A program made the translations under genes and the position numbers. The notes under the pieces are model-generated. The model was not told the DNA's origin. It saw nothing but the letters and a program-made list of their open reading frames with translations, and searched no databases. From Chrysomallon squamiferum (taxonomy: Eukaryota > Animalia > Mollusca), in NCBI GenBank assembly GCA_012295275.1, contig CM022668.1:13392001-13456000 (forward strand): a stretch of DNA of 64,000 bases, written 5' to 3'. Below, piece by piece: positions 649-54,365 of this stretch; the first letter of the stretch is position 1; every line of letters begins with the position of its first letter.

Positions 649-13861
<13,213 letters not shown>

Positions 13862-22675: not shown

Positions 22676-23542
22676 CTAAAAAAAAAAAAAAAAAAAAAAA
22701 AAACTACGGACAAGAGAAAGGTCAATTAGGCACTTGAGAAGTCTGACAGGTCCACAGGTCACTGACAGTTTGCAAAGGTCAAGGACAGCACCTCGAATCA
22801 ATGTTAGCTGTAACCCAGAATTTCTTAAAAGATTTTTCAACTCTGCTTCTTTTGGCCACAGTGAGGAAAACTCAACCAGCGAATCGCCCTGCTTGAAGGG
22901 ATGAAAAGACAATGCTGGCAACCAGAAGATATTTCTCGGATCATCGTAAGTATCACTCGGAATACATGATTCATCATATGACGTCAAGAGGTTTTTTCTC
23001 TTTAGTGCCTGATTAACAATTACTCTGTTTCTGGGAGGATCAAAGAACTTGTGCCTATGGAAACGCTTGCATGAACATGGTGAAACTGCATAAGACTCAT
23101 GAAAAGCCTTTTGTTCTTGTAAATATGTCGACCGAGAAAGATAAAGCTGTGTTGATTGTGTCTTTGAAGTCTGCGATCTTTCAAGCTGTTTCTTACGTAT
23201 TTCTGGATTTCGAATATTGTGTTGAAATTTGGAGGAAGCTAACTGGACGCCATGCGACAAATCTTGCTGTGAATCAATTTCTCGCTTGTCTTGGTTTTGT
23301 CTGTATCTTGCTGCAGAATGTGGCGTGTGTCTGCTTGTGCCCCATGGACTAACTTGAACACTTTCAGTGAAGCTTTTTTGGTGGGTGTGGTCCAGATTCT
23401 GAGTGTCTGAATGCATGGCTTCCACCCAAAGAGACTGAGTAAAATCCTGTCCAGTTCTTTGGCCACCACGCCAATACAAAGCTCTCTTTGGGATACTGTT
23501 TCCTGAACTGATTTGAACCGAATTTGGAACATAGGGAAGCAT
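22676..23542 (-). CDS. Uncharacterised 288-aa ORF, apparently single exon
   Basis: Long non-repetitive ORF, more GC-rich than its flanks, ATG in tcaaaATG context. No recognisable domain; it runs into a poly-T tract, so the C-terminus is uncertain. Confidence 0.5.
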   Translation of the reverse strand: MLPYVPNSVQISSGNSIPKRALYWRGGQRTGQDFTQSLWVEAMHSDTQNLDHTHQKSFTESVQVSPWGTSRHTPHSAARYRQNQDKREIDSQQDLSHGVQLASSKFQHNIRNPEIRKKQLERSQTSKTQSTQLYLSRSTYLQEQKAFHESYAVSPCSCKRFHRHKFFDPPRNRVIVNQALKRKNLLTSYDESCIPSDTYDDPRNIFWLPALSFHPFKQGDSLVEFSSLWPKEAELKNLLRNSGLQLTLIRGAVLDLCKLSVTCGPVRLLKCLIDLSLVRSFFFFFFFF

Positions 23543-24975
23543 TTTGATAATTTTTAAAAGAAATTTACTTAAATAATTAGTTTAAAAAAAATTAATTTCA
23601 ACTCGATTTTAAAAATTAACTTTATTACCATTTTAATTATAATTTTAAATCTTTTTGCTTGTTTTAAAACCATTTTTTTTTTATTTCACATGATTTTGTC
23701 ATATAGTTACCATTATTTATTAAAATGACAGATAATTTATTTTATAACTATTTGGAATTCATAATTTAAAAATAAAATGTTGAATAAGATTTCAGTAGTA
23801 GTCTCCCCTTCAGTGTTATCAATTTAAAATTCAGCATGATTAATATTCTAAATCATAAATGAAATAAATAAATAAGTAAAAATATAAATGTTCTTGTGAT
23901 TAAATAAATATTGTATTGTTATGGTTTACCTGTGGGAATAAAAATATTATGGGTGAATAAGCAAAGGATAAAAAAAATGAGTTCATTAATTTATTAAGTA
24001 TAATAATAAATGTTTCTGGGTGAAAATTAAGTTTGTAAAAGCTGATTTAATTACTCTACTTATAATATAAGAACTACAAAAAGTTCTAATTAAAAAAAAT
24101 ATAAAAACAGATGTCATTATTATTACTACTGCTGTTTTATTAAGTGGCTTATTAATCACCCAGTCTTTTTAGTATATTAACACCAGCAGGGCGAAAAATC
24201 TAAGAATTGTTAAGTCTGTTTGTTCTCTATTGCCAAGGAGCATTAATCTCATTGTAAATTCTATGAATATTCATAAAGCTGTATAGCTTGCTGTCTTTAC
24301 ATGATTAAACACACAAATGTTTTCTCCAAGAACAAAACTTAAATATTTTAAGGGTTCAAGCATAAAAGTGAGTGCTGAGCATGTTTGAAGCAGAGGTGGT
24401 GAGGTTGAAAAGTTAGTGCCATTTGTGATTGTCATAATCATCTATACTGAAAGCAGTATTTAAGATCACCAGTTGTCCTTTCTTGATTTTCTTCTTCAGT
24501 TTATGAGAGTAGGAAAAGTATAGTTTTTAATAATTACTGCAAATGAAGAATTAAATACATTCATTGATCAATAACATAGAAATGTTAATCAATTTTTAGA
24601 ATAAACTTTTGTTACTTTAGAATAAACATTATGTTATGGAAATAATTTTTGGCTTTTTCATAATAAAAACAAAAATGAAAACAACAATTAAATAAATAAG
24701 TCAGAAAATAACCCTAAATAGTTAAAAAAAACTAAAAACTTTCATAATTGTAATCACTTTGAACTAAATGTAAGATCAGTATAAGTATGTCTGGTTTAAA
24801 GACATTCATGTTTTTATTACTATATGGAAAAATTATTTTGAACCTAACTTTATTTAGTATCAGTATTATAATTAATGAATATTCATGTACATTACAACAG
24901 AAATACAAAAACCTTAATTATTATGTATGTACATAAATATTTTAACTAATCTTGTTAAAGCCAATATTTACTGAC

Positions 24976-27050: not shown

Positions 27051-28488
27051 ATTATTTTATTTTCACATACGACTCTTCATTTCTGTAACCCTTTAGTCTT
27101 CATAAGTTAGTAGAAAAGTCATTAACACCAGTTTACAACTTTATTTTTAGGATAATATATATAATATATAATTATCTAGCATGCTGTTTGGATGTTAATA
27201 GCCGTGATCTGTTATCTAATACTACTAAAGTACTAGTAATAGTAGTATACTATATACTAATACTAATACTGTAATACTTACCGGAATCAAATAACGATGT
27301 AAATAACGAATAATATATACATAGCGGCAGTCACCTTGCCAAAATAACTTAGTGACAAATAATTAGTTTTCATTTTTAAATGATAAACACTCATTGTCAT
27401 TGTGTACACAAATTACCAACATACAAACATGGACGTTTTCATTCGTACATCATATATATATAATGATATCTTCTTTTTGCAGAATCTGTCAAATAAAAGT
27501 TTTGTTCTTGACACTGTGTACATACATAGTGGAATACGTAGCCTTTGATAGTAAACCTTTCTGAAGAGATTTGCCAGCAAGTAAACAATTAGAAAACGTT
27601 TACATGTTCTGAAAATATTAGATCACTGTATACATCACTGACTGAAAAACAAACAACAACAAACAATAAAAAAACCCTCCCCCCCAAAAAAAAAATAAAA
27701 TGAAAAAAAAAAAAAAAAATTATTACAATTTTTACCTTTCCTAATATAAAGTGAAGATGTGCCCGAAATGTCCATATACTACTAAAAATATCAGCAATCT
27801 AAGATCTAGTACTCTGGAATAATTTTAAAAACTGATATCAAGTCATTTTGTTTAGACAGGAATACACAAAACAATGTTGTATAATAAACAATACATAAGA
27901 CACTGGAACTGAAGTAGTGCGATAAGTCACCAGCAAGGATTGATCCTGGAACATATTATTCTGTGAAGTAACTGTACCCTATAGCATGATAATCCCTTTT
28001 TTATTTTTTTTTTAAAAAAAATTTATAATGAAATTGTCTGTTTAACAAGCCAAAGAGATCTGTACATATGGAAATCACATTATACCCTCCTGTTGTAAAC
28101 CAGCCATGGGGCACTGCCTGAAGTGATAGATAATCCAGTGTGGGTGTGGCAGTTAGGACTGAATCCAGAATATATTGCTCCTTAAATCCTAAATAATCTG
28201 TCAACCATAGGCTTTATAATTATATATTGAATAACAACAACAACAAGTAAATAAATAACTAAATAAAAACATTTTGGCTTTATGCTTGCCAGCTGAGTCA
28301 CTAATTATGACTCAGTATCAAAACTAGGAATTAAACCATAATAAGATGTGACTTGTAGTCCATTAATCCTTGAAGAATCCTCCATCTCTTAACAAGTAAC
28401 AACTACATAATGTTACATTTTCTGCAGATTAACTATGTGAGAAAGAACGACACCGATGCATGTAGGAGCCTAGGAGTAGGAGCCAGAT

Positions 28489-41366
<12,878 letters not shown>

Positions 41367-46278: not shown

Positions 46279-46913
46279 ATGGAAAGCAGTTCCATTGCTG
46301 AATCACGTACAAAAGCGATGATAAATCTGAGATTTGTTCAAGGAAAATACGAAGAAGTATTTAAATTGTTAACGGTAAGGATATTTTTATTTTATTTCCA
46401 CGTAACCAAAAACTGAACAATCGAATATATAATAAGAATATATTTATTTTATTTCATTTATATAGGGTACCTTTTTCATTTGATTTAAAAAAAAAAAAAA
46501 AAGATTTTGACTACATAATATATATATTTTGTTAGTCAGACTTTATTGTTTTAGTTCATTGTATTAAAATGTTGTACATTGTTATATAAATCTTTATAAA
46601 GTTTTACAGATTATTAATTTGTATCTAAATATTAAACTTTGTATTACATTTGTTAAAAAGTTTGTAAAAGAATCGATCTTAATGTTAAATAATGTTATAT
46701 TTTGTTATTCAAGTGTTAAACTATTTAAATTACTTTTTCGCGCCTACTAAAATAGTCATTTTGTATTAAAGTGTTATACTTAGCATTTTAAATGTTGCAT
46801 TATTAAAGACTGTTTTTATTTATTTATTTATTTATTTATTTATTATTTTTTTTATATATAATATCGTTATTAATTTTAATTTTTTTTTTTTTTTTTGAAT
46901 ATTCATATCATTC

Positions 46914-46957
<44 letters not shown>

Positions 46958-49442
46958 TAATAATTTTGTATTATTGAAGGAAAACACATTTTCGGATAAA
47001 ACTGGACTTCTTGATCTGTGGGATGACGCACATTACAAGGCGTATGAAAATAAATGGGGACGGAAACTAACAGCTCTTATGCGATTTAGAATCCGCAAAA
47101 GGTAATAAATTAATTGTAAAAAAGACATTAGATGACAAATGTATAAGGTGTTCATTTAGCTGAAATTTTGTATAATGAATTGACGAAGCCAATAAACTAT
47201 TAGGAATTACTGTTAATTATTAAATTGCGTGCATTACTATTATTATTTTTTTTTGTATGTGTATACATTTGCGCGCGTCTGCGAAAAAGAGGGAGACAGA
47301 TGTGTGGATAGAGACAGAAAGAGACAGAAAAATGATGATTCAGAATAATTTTAATATCTTAAGCCAAGTGAAAAATTAATTGTCTTCACATATAAGTGAA
47401 TATGATTATACTTGGTGATGAAGGGTCATACGTTGAAAATGATCTAGAGTATTTTTATCGGCAAACTTTTAGATTAAAAATAACTTAATTATCGATACGT
47501 TTCTAGGTTCCTGTATTTATCTAACACGTGACCGGCGTTTATAATTCAAAACAACAATGTATTGTCTTTAAAACATATGCATATTTCTAACTATATATAT
47601 ATATATATTGAGTGGAAAATACCACAATTAAAATACCAACATCAATATTTTATTAAATAATTTATTTGGACTATCCACCGACTTCAAAATATTTGTCAAA
47701 AGGTATTGAGAAAAATATTTTGTTACATAATTTCGTCCAGATATCCAGCACCTCCAAATAATTCTCCAAAAAAAGAAGAAATTAATTAACAAACAATTAA
47801 ACAAATAAATAATAAAATTCAAAAAAAAAAAAGAGAGGAAAATGCGTATGCAGTAATGAAGGAAAAAAAAAAAAAAATACAAATTTTGTAAATAATTTCG
47901 TCCAGATATCCGCCACCTCCGAACGTCTGTCCAAACGGAGTGAGGCCGTCCGCGCGCCTCGGCGAACCAGCGTGTCGTCTGCTCAAGTCGTGGTTCCTGG
48001 AGCACCAGCATCACCCCTACCCTTCGAAGGACGAGAAGGAGAAGCTGTCGACAGTGACGGGCCTCTCCCTGGAGCAGATAAAAACGTGGTTCGCCAACGC
48101 GAGGAGAAGAACGAAGCTGAAAATGACGAGCAGCAGCATCATCAGGAAGAACGAGAAATGGTGAGTACTGAAATTTTTAAGGGATTGTATTTAGGGATTA
48201 TTTTTCTGAATTTTTTTTAAATCAAGAGATGGTTTCCCTTCTAAAAAAAAAAAAAAAAAAGACAGATGTCCCGCGTAAAGCAGACATGTCATTTGATAGA
48301 CAAAAATTCTTTGTTGGGGTCGTGTAAATGTACATCCTGTACACCCCTTGTTCAATAGTGGTACTGCTCCAATCTGTTCAGCAAGCAAGTGAAACATCAG
48401 AGTTGATCAGTTAGCTGACTGATTTATTTCATCACACTATTGTTATATATGGCACCTGTTTAAAGTGTTTTCTTATAATCTATACAAGCAACAGCGAGAG
48501 CCTAACTGCAATCTGGTAAATCCAGTTAACACATCTTTATAAATAAATCCACAAATGAATCAATATAAATAAAACTAACTTCAAAAAATTTTGTTCTGTG
48601 TTTAGTTGTATCATACTTGGGTTTCGTTGCCAGGTAACGACCAGTTTCCACACATGTCATTGCAGCTGTGGTTGCTAAAGACCTCGTTGATGCCATCAGG
48701 TCCTCTGTCCAGCTCTCCGTAGGCACGTTCAACTGAGTGAACTGTCGGCCCGGAAATTACAATTTCTGTTAAGTCGGGTGAAATAACACCTTGAAGACCA
48801 CACACAACGCATTCACCTCCACTCGCGTGATAAGTAAAATGTACGAAAGCAGCCAGAACATTGTCATCAGTGTCGTTAACGACTTCGCCATTTCGACTGA
48901 CAAAAGCTTTAAAATGCTTGTCGATTTTGGCTTCGAACATGACCAAGTCTCCTTCGCTGAGAGAACGATGCCGCCGTTTCACAGCGTGCAGCGATGCAAC
49001 GTCGCACACTTTAGCGAAGAAGGGAAGAAGAACGGTAACTCTCGTCTTCGTGAAACGTTTTTCGTTAAACTGCTTGGCGTGTTGCTGAGCGACTTTGCAC
49101 CTGTTTATTTCAGCGTCCCTTTCGCCGTCTGTCCATTTCCCAGAGCGCTTCACTTTGACGCAGACTTTCTCTGCGTTGAGAGGGCCATCGCCTTGTGCAA
49201 TTCCCACGTACACCTTCTTCCTTGTGCCCTTTCTCCATGAGGAGTCCTCAAAATGCACGCTGTACGCAGCACCATCGTTGTCTGTACTTCTGTAAGTACT
49301 GTTGCACAGGAGACTCATTGCGGTTTCTAAAATGAATCGTTAATACAGTCCCATTGTAACAAACGTTTTCTGTGTTTTTTGTCTCTCTCTGTCTCTGTCT
49401 CTCTCTCTCTCTGTGTCTGTCTCTGTCAGTCTCAGTTTCTCT

Positions 49443-49513
<71 letters not shown>

Positions 49514-51184
49514 TCTGTCTCTCTCACTCTCTCTGTCTCTCTCTGTCTGCCTCTTCAGCATCACTTATATATAGATATATCAGTTGTAATACACTAATTT
49601 AACTATTGACAGGTAAAATATTGCCATTTACTTACATCATCTATTCAAAAAAGATATAAGGTACAATTAACACGAAACGCTACTTTAACATTTTACTTCT
49701 AATAAACGAAATTTAAACAAATTAAATTAAATTAAATTTGAAAAAAATAATAATAATAATAAAAATAAAATGAAAGTAAAAAATGAAGCAAAGTGAAAGA
49801 CAAGATCTTACCTCACACAGAAAAACACTATGAAAGGATTCTGGGTATTGCAGTTTTCAAATGAGTATGTTCTATAAATACATTTCACAAGAAAGATGAC
49901 GTCAACTTGTAGTGGAATCCCTTGATATATATATATACACTATTACACTTCATTGGCAACAATGATACAATAGGCTAATTCTTTTTCAACAGATATCTAA
50001 CACATTCGTATGCTGGGCAGTGAGTTTCCTGTCTAATACTACCTACTGGAATACATTAAAAAATAACTGGGTTAATCTATTCTGTAAATGAATTTTCAAA
50101 GAAATGTGAGTCAACTAATAGGGGAATCCCCTGATGCATATATACACTGGGAAGATTACCCAGCAGGCCACTTCTATGCATAAAGTGTCAACTGTATTGT
50201 AGCATGCTTACAGCATCATTTATAATAAATAAATTCAGAAAAATAATATCTGAATTAAAGCCTGTATTAAGCACCTTAAATCGAAACATTATGACATAAA
50301 TAATTTTAAAAAAAAATAAAGATAATTACACACACACAAAAAAACAACTTTATTTCATACAAACAACAGTGAGAGTCTAATTGCAATCTGGTAAATGCAA
50401 TTAATAAATCTGTAAACAAATTCATAAATAAATCTAATTTTATATGATTTGTTTTTCTGTATTTAGTTGCACTGGACTATTCCATTATTTATGACATCTA
50501 TTATTCAAGGTAAACTGCAGGTCGTTATAAATGCGCTCAACCGTGACGTGTTTGATAGCATCTGAATGTATGGGATGTTGGCTCTTTTGGGAGGTATATA
50601 CCTCAGCGATATATCACGGTTGTAACTAGACTCTTTTTGAAACAAGGGAAATACCTGTTTTTTTGTCTTATGTTTCTTAAGTCAGTTATGTTTTTCATTG
50701 CAACAGTGGTAACCATAGACATAAATGAATTCAAAAATGTTGGTGTCTTGTTTGTAAGGTGTTGGGGTGAGTCTTCTAGTGTTACCTGTACCTAAAACAG
50801 ATTGGGGTGATGTAGATTCGAGAGCTTACGAATTAAAGTGTTAAAATGAATTATCACCTGATTGTAGGCTGTAGAATCAAAACAATAATCTAGTATTGGA
50901 AAACTGTTTTTGAAGTACTTTACTCTTAAAAAAAAAATAAAAATAAAAAAAATAAACCTAAAAAAAAAAATATATATATTTTAATAATAACAAAATAAAA
51001 TAAAAAAACTAACAGTTAAAACAAAAAAAAGAACATTTTACTTATTCTTGAAAAATTATCAACACGGAGAATAACAACAAACTAGAAACGAATTCCTTGC
51101 ATCAAAAAAATAAAAAAATGAAATAAATAAATAAATAAATAAATAAATAGAAAAATAAAATTAATAACAATAATAATAATAATC

Positions 51185-51232
<48 letters not shown>

Positions 51233-52564
51233 TAAAAAAAATGAAAGACAAAAAATTATTTAAAAATTCTATTTCTGTTTTTACTGCAGCAAAGAAAAAG
51301 CGAACGTAGGGAAAATAAAAATAAAAAAGGAGAACGAAACCAACACGCAATGGGCCAACTACACAGACATTTCAGATGATGGAAGAGAGACAGCACCACT
51401 GGAAACAACTTTGGTGGAGCCCAGAATTGAACCTGCACCCCTGGACATGCGGTGTCCTTCGAAAATCACTGAAGTGGAACGAAAGACGGCTTTGGCAAAC
51501 ATGAGGAAAAATTTGCAAAATTCACAACAGTATCAGGAAAGGTTGGTTGTGATACCTGATTGTCAGTGTTAATAATAGATGAATTGATGTGCAGATATGC
51601 TTATAGGTGAATGTTTGTATTAAATAGCAGATATTAATGGTTTATGAAGTATTTGGAAAATGTATTTTTTGTTGTGTCTTTTGTGCTTTCTTTTTAATGT
51701 TAGACATACACACACACACACCCACACATGCATGCACAAATTCACATATATGTAAACACACAAACAATTAAAAAAGATATTCAGCATTTCCAGATTACAT
51801 GTTGACAATCACAAATAACAACAACAACAACAACAACAACAAAAATAGAAATAATAAATAAATAAATAAATAAAAAAATAAATAAAATAAAATAAAAATA
51901 AAATAAAAAATACTTTTTATGTTTATGGAAAATGGGCTACAAAAAAAAAAAAAAACATGCATTTGTACCTAGCACAGTTGAAACATTTTTCACTCACCTT
52001 ACGTAGTATTTATCTATTTCAGCTTTTCACCACAGCAAACACACTACTACAGCAGCCACTATTTGTCCAGTTTAGTAAACTTTGTGAATAACAGCAACAG
52101 CAGCAGCAGCAGCAGCAATACACTGACAGCCACAAATTTTTCCACAGGGAATCATCATTTGCCATATTCTCCATCGTCCAGTAACCCATCACATTTCTTG
52201 AGATCATCCTACAATTGGCACAATCATTCGGACCACAAGATCTGGTTGCCGAGGCAACAACATCCTGTTTCATCATCACATTCTGCTGACAGTTGGCCAG
52301 TGACAGCTGTTGATATGCAGAGAAGTGGTGAGTGTGTGATTCAGGTTGTGAATAAATAGTGTGTTCCATTTTAGAGCTGGTTAAATGCTGGATGTTATTT
52401 TGTTTCTTGTTGAACTTAAGAGACAGAAAAGTACACCTGTAGAGTATTGAGGTGCTTCAGGTGTTTCTGTTTTTTACTTGTTTTGTTTGTTTGTTTTTTT
52501 TTTTTTTTTTTTTTTATATTATTCTTGTGTGTTTTGCTTTGTATTATTTGTTTCATTTATGTAT

Positions 52565-52632
<68 letters not shown>

Positions 52633-53114
52633 TTAATTTATTTATTTATTATTAATTTATTTCTTTACTTGTTTGTTTTGCTTTGATTTATTATTATTAT
52701 TATTTATTGTTTTTTAGAAATTATTATTTTTTTAAATATTTTTTGTCCTTTTTTTGGCATGAAGCTATTTTTGTTTTAACTAACACAGTAAGTAATTCAT
52801 TTTCTGAAATCATGGATAATTTTTCAAGTTCTTTTATGCTAAATGTTGACATACAGGATTTATATTAACAAGGGAGATAACCTCTGAATTGAAATGAATC
52901 AGGATAAGACAAAAATGTATTTTTACATTTTCGTAAAATTATTAAATCTGCACCTAAGTATTATATAACCAAAAAAACACACAACAAAACCCCATCAACA
53001 ACAAAAAAAAAATTAGTAAAGATGTTTGAAGTATTTATTTCTTAGATGAAATTAATATATCAAGTAACAAAATGAAAACTTTACTCTTTTCACAAGCTGC
53101 AAGTATATGAGGCC

Positions 53115-53184
<70 letters not shown>

Positions 53185-54365
53185 CAAGGAAACAAGCCTT
53201 GGAGATAAAAATAAATAATACATATATATATATATATTTTTTTTTAAATTGACTTTCAACAAATATAAACAGATACATCAAATAAACGGAATATTTTATC
53301 AACAGGTGTGTAATATATTTCAGTATTCTATTTCAGAAAGTACACCACCAGTTACATCACCATCATCAATCACCTGTCCGACATCAGACGGTGGACGTCT
53401 GCCACCTCTGTCTCCTCAGATATTCGGCTGGACTCCAGGCTCCAGGGCAGTCTCCACCCCACCACCCAGCCAGTTCATATATTACAACAATCAACCACTG
53501 GTCAGTTCCAGACCACTGTCCACTTCAAGTCCACGACAAGTGCCTAACTACAGTACCTTTAATCTGAGACCGTGTCTACCGGTGAATCAGATATGGCTTC
53601 AGAATTTGTCTCAGTTTCCACATCATTATCCTCTTCCTTATGGAATGGTGACACCAGTCAGGCAGCCATGTTTGGATGCTGCAGTGGTTGATGTTGCACC
53701 AGTAACTTCTGCAGGCTTCTCTGGATACTCTTCTTCGTATGTGATGATGTCAAACAGAGGAGGTGCAGTATTTTATATTGCTGATTGGTGGTTTTGTAAC
53801 ATAATATATATTTTTTTATATATTTCCAGCTAATGACAAGAATTATTTTGGTATTACTTCTGTGGTGAAATACATATTTATACACATCCAAAAATTGTAC
53901 ATCATTTAAATATTCCTTTAGTTGACTTATAAAGTATACTGTTTGCTACTTTTTCTATGGTTTAAATACACTTCCAAATAAGGAAACAAATTATTGTAGT
54001 AGAAATATTTTCCCTGTAATTCCAGTACAAATTATAATAGTAGTAATCTTTTCCCTGTAGTTCCAGTACAAATTATTATAGTAGTAATCTTTTTCCTGTA
54101 GTTCCAGTACAAATTATTACAGTAGTAATCTTTTTCCTGTAGTTTCAGTCTCTCATTTGTTCATCTTCAAATTTCTTTAACTTATGCTGCAGCTTGTAAT
54201 GGTAAATCGGTTGTTTCTACTTCACCTTTGAATGGCTACCAGGGAGATAACTCTAGGTGTTTTGAATCGGGTTGGAGTGTTGTTGCAGATCATCAACATG
54301 ATAACGTCTTTGTTCCTTCAACAGTCAGCAACAGTGTTGAAGAATCAGTTGAGAAAATGAGGTAG
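46279..54365 (+). CDS. Homeobox transcription factor: partial SIX-type domain plus TALE-class homeodomain (ANHX-like / SIX-like), ~550 aa with a long S/P/Q-rich tail
   Basis: Phase-consistent exons 46279-46374 (MESSSIAESRTKAMINLRFVQGKYEEVFKLLT), 46980-47101 (LLDLWDDAHYKAYENKWGRKLTALMRFRIRK), 47906-48160 (YPPPPNVCPNG...LKSWFLEHQHHPYPSKDEKEKLSTVTGLSLEQIKTWFANARRR), 51290-51541, 52023-52327, 53337-53736, 54143-54365. The first six exons are well supported; the 3' end is less certain. Confidence 0.85.
48611..49318 (-). CDS. Alpha-kinase (eEF2K/MHCK/TRPM7 fold) domain-only protein, probable pseudokinase, nested in the homeobox gene intron
   Basis: 235 aa with alpha-kinase landmarks VCVKVK, AQQHAKQFN, MFEAKIDKHF, LAAFVHFTYHASGG, VVCGLQGV, ISGPTVHS, YGELDRGPDGI and zinc ligands HSCNDMC. 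CDS has no intron; putative 5'UTR intron 49327-49811 (GAG|gtaaga ... ttttag|AAACCGCAATG); minus-strand AATAAA at 48423-48428. Confidence 0.9.
   Translation of the reverse strand: MSLLCNSTYRSTDNDGAAYSVHFEDSSWRKGTRKKVYVGIAQGDGPLNAEKVCVKVKRSGKWTDGERDAEINRCKVAQQHAKQFNEKRFTKTRVTVLLPFFAKVCDVASLHAVKRRHRSLSEGDLVMFEAKIDKHFKAFVSRNGEVVNDTDDNVLAAFVHFTYHASGGECVVCGLQGVISPDLTEIVISGPTVHSVERAYGELDRGPDGINEVFSNHSCNDMCGNWSLPGNETQV
49870..50165 (-). promoter_or_regulatory. Putative promoter of the nested alpha-kinase gene with a duplicated STAT / AP-1-CRE / NF-kB motif module
   Basis: TATA-like TATTTATA at ~49873-49880 (minus strand). Module 1: TTCACAAGAA 49884-49893, TGACGTCA 49897-49904, GTGGAATCCC 49912-49921. 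Module 2: TTCAAAGAA 50095-50103, TGAGTCA 50107-50113, GGGGAATCCCC 50121-50131. Confidence 0.55.
53995..54150. repeat. ~41-bp tandem repeat ending at a candidate acceptor
   Basis: gtagtaatctttttcctgtagttccagtacaaattatta, 3-4 copies. Confidence 0.85.

Follow-up and report, generated by a model that had tools for sequence, protein, structure and literature searches.

The window, by which we mean the whole 64-kb stretch of DNA analysed, is AT-rich (GC 0.23–0.40 per 2 kb) and laden with microsatellites. On its minus strand, positions 48611–49318 hold an alpha-kinase gene with one coding exon, recognized from an open reading frame (ORF), a Pfam match, and a structure model. The ORF comprises 235 codons and is translated into 235 amino acids (aa) with zero internal stops, as had been claimed when the locus was first annotated, and its start methionine aligns with those of relatives; a profile search of the 64-kb window returned no second alpha-kinase. 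Third-position GC was 0.51 in the kinase ORF, 0.46–0.54 in other exon-like pieces of the window, and 0.82 in the homeobox exon described below. A pyrimidine run ending in AG and resembling a splice acceptor (49327–49340, minus strand) is found 8 nt upstream of the ATG, hinting at a 5′ non-coding exon for which candidate donors are present near 49635 and 49813. About 185 nt after the stop codon is a candidate polyadenylation signal, AATAAA (48423–48428, minus strand), the sole one on this strand between the kinase stop and the upstream host exon. The DNA directly 3′ of the stop codon (48482–48561, no strand assigned) is an element of roughly 80 bp that is 81% identical to 50357–50434; contig depth over it was raised in sequencing run X1, and it is likely a dispersed repeat. 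That the coding sequence occupies one exon, with a 5′ non-coding exon likely, is not in itself proof of retrotransposition.

The whole kinase gene lies antisense within a 3.1-kb intron (48161–51289, plus strand), the third of a host gene modelled with six plus-strand exons (46279–46374, 46980–47101, 47906–48160, 51290–51541, 52023–52327, and 53337–53833) that have GT-AG ends and compatible phases. The product of the host gene (46279–53833, plus strand) combines a SIX1_SD match of 31.1 bits with a TALE-type Homeobox_KN domain of 71.9 bits. Homeobox genes of the SIX and TALE types form distinct classes, and this hybrid presumably resembles the ANHX-type or spiralian novel homeobox genes. A 42-bp duplication (47717–47758 versus 47883–47923, 88% identical) covers the splice acceptor of the homeodomain exon, and its upstream copy at 47717–47758 could function as a decoy or alternative acceptor. 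Elsewhere in the window, KRIT1-like exons span 28480–39130 on the plus strand, with a NUDIX_5 match at 30877–31248 accompanied by NPxF motifs (20.6 bits, below the cut-off) and a FERM_M match at 38756–39127 (29.2 bits). The minus strand carries an ankyrin-repeat exon at 2073–2447 (PF00023, 34.5 bits) and, at 22676–23581, an ORF of about 300 codons with a weak LicD match (E 0.014, below the cut-off). Self-alignment delineated long minisatellite arrays at 35330–36350 and 12859–13466, where the apparent ORFs are repeat artefacts.

The 235-aa protein was aligned to the Pfam Alpha_kinase profile (PF02816), a check that the initial annotation had proposed, and scored 96.2 bits (E 3.2e-27) over profile positions 3–185 of 185, above the curated cut-off of 21.3 bits. 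PF02816 was the sole Pfam match: no vWA, WD40, or channel domain was found in the ORF, and only 12 residues separate the last zinc-binding cysteine (C223) from the end of the protein. Its PDB sequence matches, 11 of them distinct, are alpha-kinases without exception. A structure model built from a 42-sequence alignment had a pLDDT of 93.7 and a pTM of 0.89; a single-sequence fold of the same protein reached a pLDDT of 34.5. Superposition gave a Z of 21.8 with MHCK-A (3lmh; rmsd 2.4 Å over 205 residues) and, in the comparison with the TRPM7 kinase that had also been proposed, a Z of 18.8; over all alpha-kinase entries Z ranged from 13 to 22, and the best fold other than an alpha-kinase reached 7.6. 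A homodimer prediction scored 0.00 and gave no answer either way.

Alignment to PDB sequences placed glycines at both catalytic aspartates. G174 (codon GGT, 48797–48799, minus strand), within CGLQGV at residues 173–178, aligns with the aspartate of DLQGV/DIQGV and occupies the position of MHCK-A Asp756; G190 (codon GGG, 48749–48751, minus strand), within ISGPTVHS at residues 188–195, aligns with the aspartate of TDP and occupies the position of Asp766, the phosphorylated and catalytically essential aspartate. The engineered alanines of 4zs4 and 3lmi, two MHCK-A mutants titled “Inactive ... D756A” and “Inactive ... D766A” and each solved with ATP, stand in exactly the G174 and G190 columns, which confirms the substitutions as first annotated. 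The degenerate F.K(Y/F)N.N motif was likewise found to read FKAFVSRN at residues 136–143 (48890–48913, minus strand), with A138, V140, and R142 in place of Lys, Asn, and Asn. Since A138 stands where MHCK-A Lys722 aligns, a third catalytic residue has been lost, one more than the heading of the initial annotation allowed. Of the active motifs quoted there for comparison, LTDPQIHS is not the TRPM7 sequence, which reads LTDPSVI. In the excerpted text of PMC4876393, Asp766 of MHCK-A is described as catalytically essential and Phe720, Lys722, and Asp756 as required for catalysis; an excerpt of PMC2827801 states that TRPM7 has the same invariant lysine and two aspartates and that its zinc site is structural.

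The ATP-positioning lysine of the beta-strand (K55, in CVKVK at residues 53–57) and the hinge glutamate (E129) are present, as are Q176, G31, an aromatic residue at 28, and a basic residue at 34. The His-His-Cys-Cys zinc site of the C-lobe (H160, H217, C219, and C223) is complete by alignment, so that zinc binding is predicted, and together with D204 of the glycine-rich loop, also kept, it maps to 48650–48841 on the minus strand. The protein thus shares its fold, zinc site, beta-strand lysine, hinge glutamate, and LQG-motif glutamine with MHCK-A (3lmh, 4zs4, 3lmi), TRPM7 (1ia9), eEF2K, and the Entamoeba alpha kinase (4kuj), and differs from these kinases in having Gly, Gly, and Ala as the equivalents of Asp756, Asp766, and Lys722 and in lacking a vWA, WD40, or channel domain in the ORF. 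From these residues we consider the protein probably catalytically dead. The residue mapping, the confident model, and the conservation of family columns given below together lend good support to its description as a domain-only protein that folds but is predicted to lack catalysis.

An exhaustive search of 1.84 billion representatives returned 1580 matches at E 0.001, of which the best 150 were analysed. The closest of these 150 are 35–37% identical to the protein, and direct mollusc relatives are 29–37% identical. A word-index search with the single protein produced 178 candidates, none at E 1e-5; alignment searches produced 15 and 5 matches; and atlas searches recovered generic alpha-kinase clusters only. 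The one match from a metagenome scan, 15 residues long and on L001, a GC-rich contig with no relation to the gene, was dismissed as chance. Among the best 150 of the 1580 relatives, both aspartates are absent from 76 (hereafter aspartate-less), both are present in 59 (two-aspartate), and one is present in 15 (one-aspartate). The protein had originally been treated as a single oddity, but it stands within a mollusc family that is both large and old. The species lookup covered 30 clusters; in 15 of them a full-length member could be tied to a named species, each time a mollusc (Patella, Haliotis, Elysia, Nucella, Physella, Mactra, Sinanodonta, Potamilus, and Octopus), although the unnamed half could hide other phyla; the alignment search added the mollusc genera Mizuhopecten, Pinctada, Saccostrea, and Batillaria. 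Every named aspartate-less relative among the best 150 of 1580 is a mollusc, be it gastropod, bivalve, or octopus, and two-aspartate relatives occur in molluscs too (P0147). Neighbouring locus tags (SNE40_017457, 017460, and 017461; LOC124138542 and 545; ACJMK2_035397 and 035399) suggest that aspartate-less genes often stand in tandem arrays. Eight sets of close homologues (89–100% identical), taken from named species of Haliotis, Patella, Elysia, and unionids, have retained the dead state without exception. As a possible family marker, an N-terminal Met-Gly was dismissed, being present in 18 of 76 aspartate-less and 16 of 59 two-aspartate proteins among the best 150 of 1580. The protein therefore appears to belong to a large, old, and apparently undescribed mollusc family of likely dead alpha-kinases.

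Within this family, the substitutions differ in how widely they are shared. Position 174 is glycine in 48 of the best 150 of 1580 relatives and in 18 of the 26 members of the protein's own clade, itself included; G174 is thus inherited rather than a private change. G190 is rarer, with glycine in 4 of the best 150 of 1580, yet the position is non-aspartate in all 26 clade members. At position 138, lysine is found in 6 of 74 aspartate-less versus 49 of 58 two-aspartate relatives (best 150 of 1580), and while the two-aspartate relatives in this set keep the Lys, Asn, and Asn of positions 138, 140, and 142 in 49, 44, and 53 of 58, the aspartate-less group has lost the two asparagines (140 and 142) too. 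H160, G177, C219, and C223 are kept by 76 of 76 aspartate-less relatives among the best 150 of 1580, and the zinc ligands by 75–76 of 76. These comparisons bear on whether the protein might be a rewired enzyme, in which D204 or E70 of the long helix replaces the aspartates or the substrate is not a protein. D204 is invariant in the aspartate-less relatives (75 of 75 among the best 150 of 1580), and ALPK3 has been called a pseudokinase by one group and active by another (excerpt of PMC11358020). D204 is, however, equally invariant in the two-aspartate relatives of that set (58 of 58) and so represents no gain; positions 174 (G/N/K) and 190 (T/N/I and others) vary across the aspartate-less group of the best 150 of 1580, whose conserved columns include no new invariant acidic residue; and, by the PDB titles, a single Asp-to-Ala change already inactivates MHCK-A. 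A rewired enzyme is accordingly very unlikely.

The seven trait columns were taken out before tree building, which produced a quick tree from those 120 of 151 rows whose cover reached 80% and a careful one (LG+G4) from 87 rows, comprising 75 ingroup and 12 two-aspartate outgroup rows. In the careful tree the protein falls in a clade of 26 (support 99/98) whose 11 named members are all gastropods and in which both aspartates are absent from 23 members, one is absent from 3, and the second aspartate is kept by none. Given those names, the source of the window is itself probably a gastropod. Its nearest rows are P0030 (Haliotis asinina) and P0029, both of them tailed as described below, in a sister pairing that is not starred (99/74), and its own branch measures 0.56 substitutions per site. 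The sister clade has five rows (100/97; joint support 100/92), four of which are two-aspartate proteins that already have tail motifs. These four (P0022, P0051, P0064, and P0133), with PSAP or PPxY tails in the sister clade of the dead gastropod clade, may possibly represent an intermediate state. A second clade of 26 rows (99/99) has three named members, all bivalves, and no two-aspartate member, and monophyly of the 75-row ingroup is weak in the careful tree (54/61). The aspartate-less label requires 14 changes, at least nine of them forced by starred branches, when one-aspartate rows are counted outside the group; this count does not support a single origin of aspartate loss, and requires either that several lineages lost the residues or that some regained them.

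Conservation and read data bear on whether this copy is maintained or is instead a redundant duplicate under relaxed selection, one that lost its tail, came to lie in an intron, and is on the way to becoming a pseudogene within a family that is itself real. The gene is the sole alpha-kinase in the window, is nested in an intron, and has a repeat-like element right behind its stop, all of which would fit drift, as would the contigs at 85–88% identity in runs X1 and X2: these appear to be close paralogues or relatives, and because their match stops at 48624, near residue 231, they end differently from this gene. Against drift, the ORF is intact here, and the contig from run X1 that spans it (record 6) shows no frameshift, differing by 27 letters and a sole indel, an in-frame 18-nt insertion at the C-terminus; this is an independent contig, from a run that may be related to the window's source. 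At least nine ORF differences are listed for this contig, four synonymous and five non-synonymous, with neither the G174 nor the G190 codon among them, and for those listed omega is about 0.35, a synonymous excess that is not significant (p 0.11) and is to that extent compatible with drift; the paralogue-like contigs have 6 synonymous changes among the 15 differences listed (p 0.10). Along its branch of 0.56 substitutions per site, the protein has kept 27 of 30 family-conserved columns (those shared by 80% or more of the aspartate-less relatives among the best 150 of 1580), which equals the median, with 34 of 77 lower; less favourably, it keeps 38 of the 45 columns conserved in its own clade (0.84 versus a median of 0.90, 7 of 26 lower). 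The acceptor-like site and AATAAA flank the ORF, and tail-less aspartate-less genes have been kept in three to four Haliotis species. In the RNA library X2, contigs of about 85% identity reached depths of 2.5–3.1, which is no demonstration of transcription of this gene. We regard the gene as probably maintained and drift toward a pseudogene as unlikely.

The relatives' tails, defined as the residues after the last zinc cysteine and compared with an expectation from 200 shuffles of each tail, are enriched in short binding motifs. PPxY or P[ST]AP is found in the tails of 53 of the 76 aspartate-less relatives among the best 150 of 1580, where 5.0 would be expected; by motif, PPxY occurs in 44 and P[ST]AP in 37 (4.1 and 1.1 expected). 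In the same best 150, tail motifs are present in 5 of 59 two-aspartate (0.9 expected) and 7 of 15 one-aspartate proteins, and when only tails of at least 40 residues are counted the proportions are 47 of 59 aspartate-less, 5 of 39 two-aspartate, and 6 of 10 one-aspartate. The clade of 26 has them in 18 members, and they are kept, where present, across the eight homologue sets, two of which are tail-less across three and four Haliotis species. On the tree, tail motif and aspartate loss form one independent pair when starred branches are used and four when all branches are; the motifs being a clade trait with one to four independent pairs, co-evolution of the two cannot be claimed. Neither PPxY nor P[ST]AP occurs in the protein studied here or in the three frames after its stop, where there is no tail remnant. 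As the two nearest rows and the two-aspartate sister clade are tailed, loss of the tail in this copy is the simpler reading.

PPxY binds the WW domains of NEDD4-type ubiquitin ligases, and alpha-arrestins such as ARRDC1 carry the same pair of PSAP and PPxY motifs. The enrichment of both motifs therefore suggests that the tailed relatives are adaptors for NEDD4-type ligases and ESCRT-I; the link of the present protein to ubiquitin and ESCRT comes through those relatives, its own motif being absent. In SIMPLE/LITAF, according to an excerpt of PMC3514783, PSAP binds TSG101. The tailed relatives resemble that protein in their PSAP and PPxY tail motifs, whereas the core domains of LITAF and the alpha-arrestins are unrelated to theirs, and the analogy with LITAF and ARRDC1, in which binding is predicted, applies to them and not directly to the tail-less copy.

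We tentatively propose, as a reading that is plausible but short of probable, that this gene encodes a dead alpha-kinase domain whose role is that of a binding decoy without a tail, in a mollusc family of long standing whose members are pseudokinase adaptors. The 235-aa domain is predicted to fold normally, would transfer no phosphate, and would serve as a binding module. In tailed members, such as XP_046361202.1 of Haliotis, a client could be bound through the dead kinase domain while PPxY recruits WW-domain NEDD4-type ligases and PSAP recruits TSG101/ESCRT-I, and the client would thereby be sent to ubiquitination or endosomal sorting. The present copy, having putatively lost its tail after the family arose, might occupy the same kind of client without recruiting a ligase, so that the pathway would be damped. 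A broader version is somewhat doubtful: that a short mollusc alpha-kinase gave rise to a large family of dead adaptors coupling kinase-fold recognition to NEDD4-type ligases and ESCRT-I, the tail coming first, catalysis later disappearing from two or more lineages, and copies without a tail acting as built-in antagonists.

The dead domain might also be a nucleotide-binding switch: by taking up ATP or ADP and shifting conformation, it would serve as a sensor or as an allosteric partner of an active paralogue, a role that is compatible with that of a decoy. The protein keeps K55, E129, Q176, G31, the aromatic residue at 28, and the basic residue at 34; in the aspartate-less relatives among the best 150 of 1580, position 55 is Lys or Arg in 58 of 61 and position 129 is Glu in 70 of 74; by their PDB titles, both inactive MHCK-A mutants, D756A and D766A, have structures that contain bound ATP; and two-aspartate relatives that might be partners are present in molluscs (P0147). 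On the other hand, both aspartates have been lost together, the hinge lysine and glutamate may serve the fold, and residues of the nucleotide site vary in the aspartate-less group of the best 150 of 1580, Gln176 being kept in 26 of 76 and the P-loop arginine, present in 35 of 48 two-aspartate relatives, being variable. We consider such a switch rather unlikely. The initial annotation had named a decoy, a scaffold, or a nucleotide sensor as possible roles; the relatives' PPxY and PSAP tails favour an adaptor family with a tail-less decoy over a pure nucleotide sensor, without deciding directly among them.

No description of aspartate-less mollusc alpha-kinases was found in the open full-text literature searched, for the most part main texts, and the same literature held no paper combining “alpha-kinase” with “PPxY”. 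ALPK3, described in an excerpt of PMC9698156 as the first alpha-pseudokinase, is the only one found in print in that literature. Its status is disputed in PMC11358020, so that calling an alpha-kinase dead from sequence is contestable. ALPK3 has the alpha-kinase fold and is proposed in these excerpts to be a scaffold tied to protein turnover; of four residues that vary in it, two (TRPM7 G1725 and K1729) are changed here too, as K134 and A138. ALPK3 is a muscle protein of vertebrates, 201 kDa in mass, that still has its aspartates (D1774 and D1784, which were edited in PMC9698156), whereas the mollusc proteins have lost theirs, are for the most part short, and make up a large multigene family. 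An arrestin-like adaptor role, if true, would be one described for no alpha-kinase in the full-text literature searched.

Direct relatives annotated as “alpha-protein kinase vwkA-like” or “alpha-protein kinase 1-like” (for example XP_050399528.1, XP_071092062.1, and XP_046361266.1) are likewise aspartate-less; their names imply active kinases, and many carry the PSAP/PPxY tails that are absent from the present copy, which also differs from Dictyostelium vwkA (excerpt of PMC2827801) in having no N-terminal von Willebrand A domain in its ORF. Because the aspartates have been lost outright across gastropods, bivalves, and octopus, many mollusc “vwkA-like kinases” are probably not enzymes, a status that would change the reading of shellfish expression results. 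An excerpt of the oyster kinome study (PMC4883820) lists nine atypical kinases whose functions it calls unknown, and the word “pseudokinase” is absent from that excerpt and from one of PMC11515245. Mussel (Mytilus) VwkA, according to PMC9283884, is expressed in the larval shell field, rises at low pH, and is treated as an active kinase; it is set beside the mollusc family here by name alone. A table in an excerpt of PMC7217437 includes a vwkA match from a brittle star. The interest of the finding lies more in the family than in this one gene: its two-aspartate, one-aspartate, dead-tailed, and dead-tail-less relatives would offer a natural series from enzyme to adaptor to decoy, and the PPxY/PSAP tails make the adaptor hypothesis directly and cheaply testable. 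In two very long relatives, P0065 (3296 aa, Octopus sinensis) and P0020 (1530 aa), the aspartate-less alpha-kinase domain is N-terminal.
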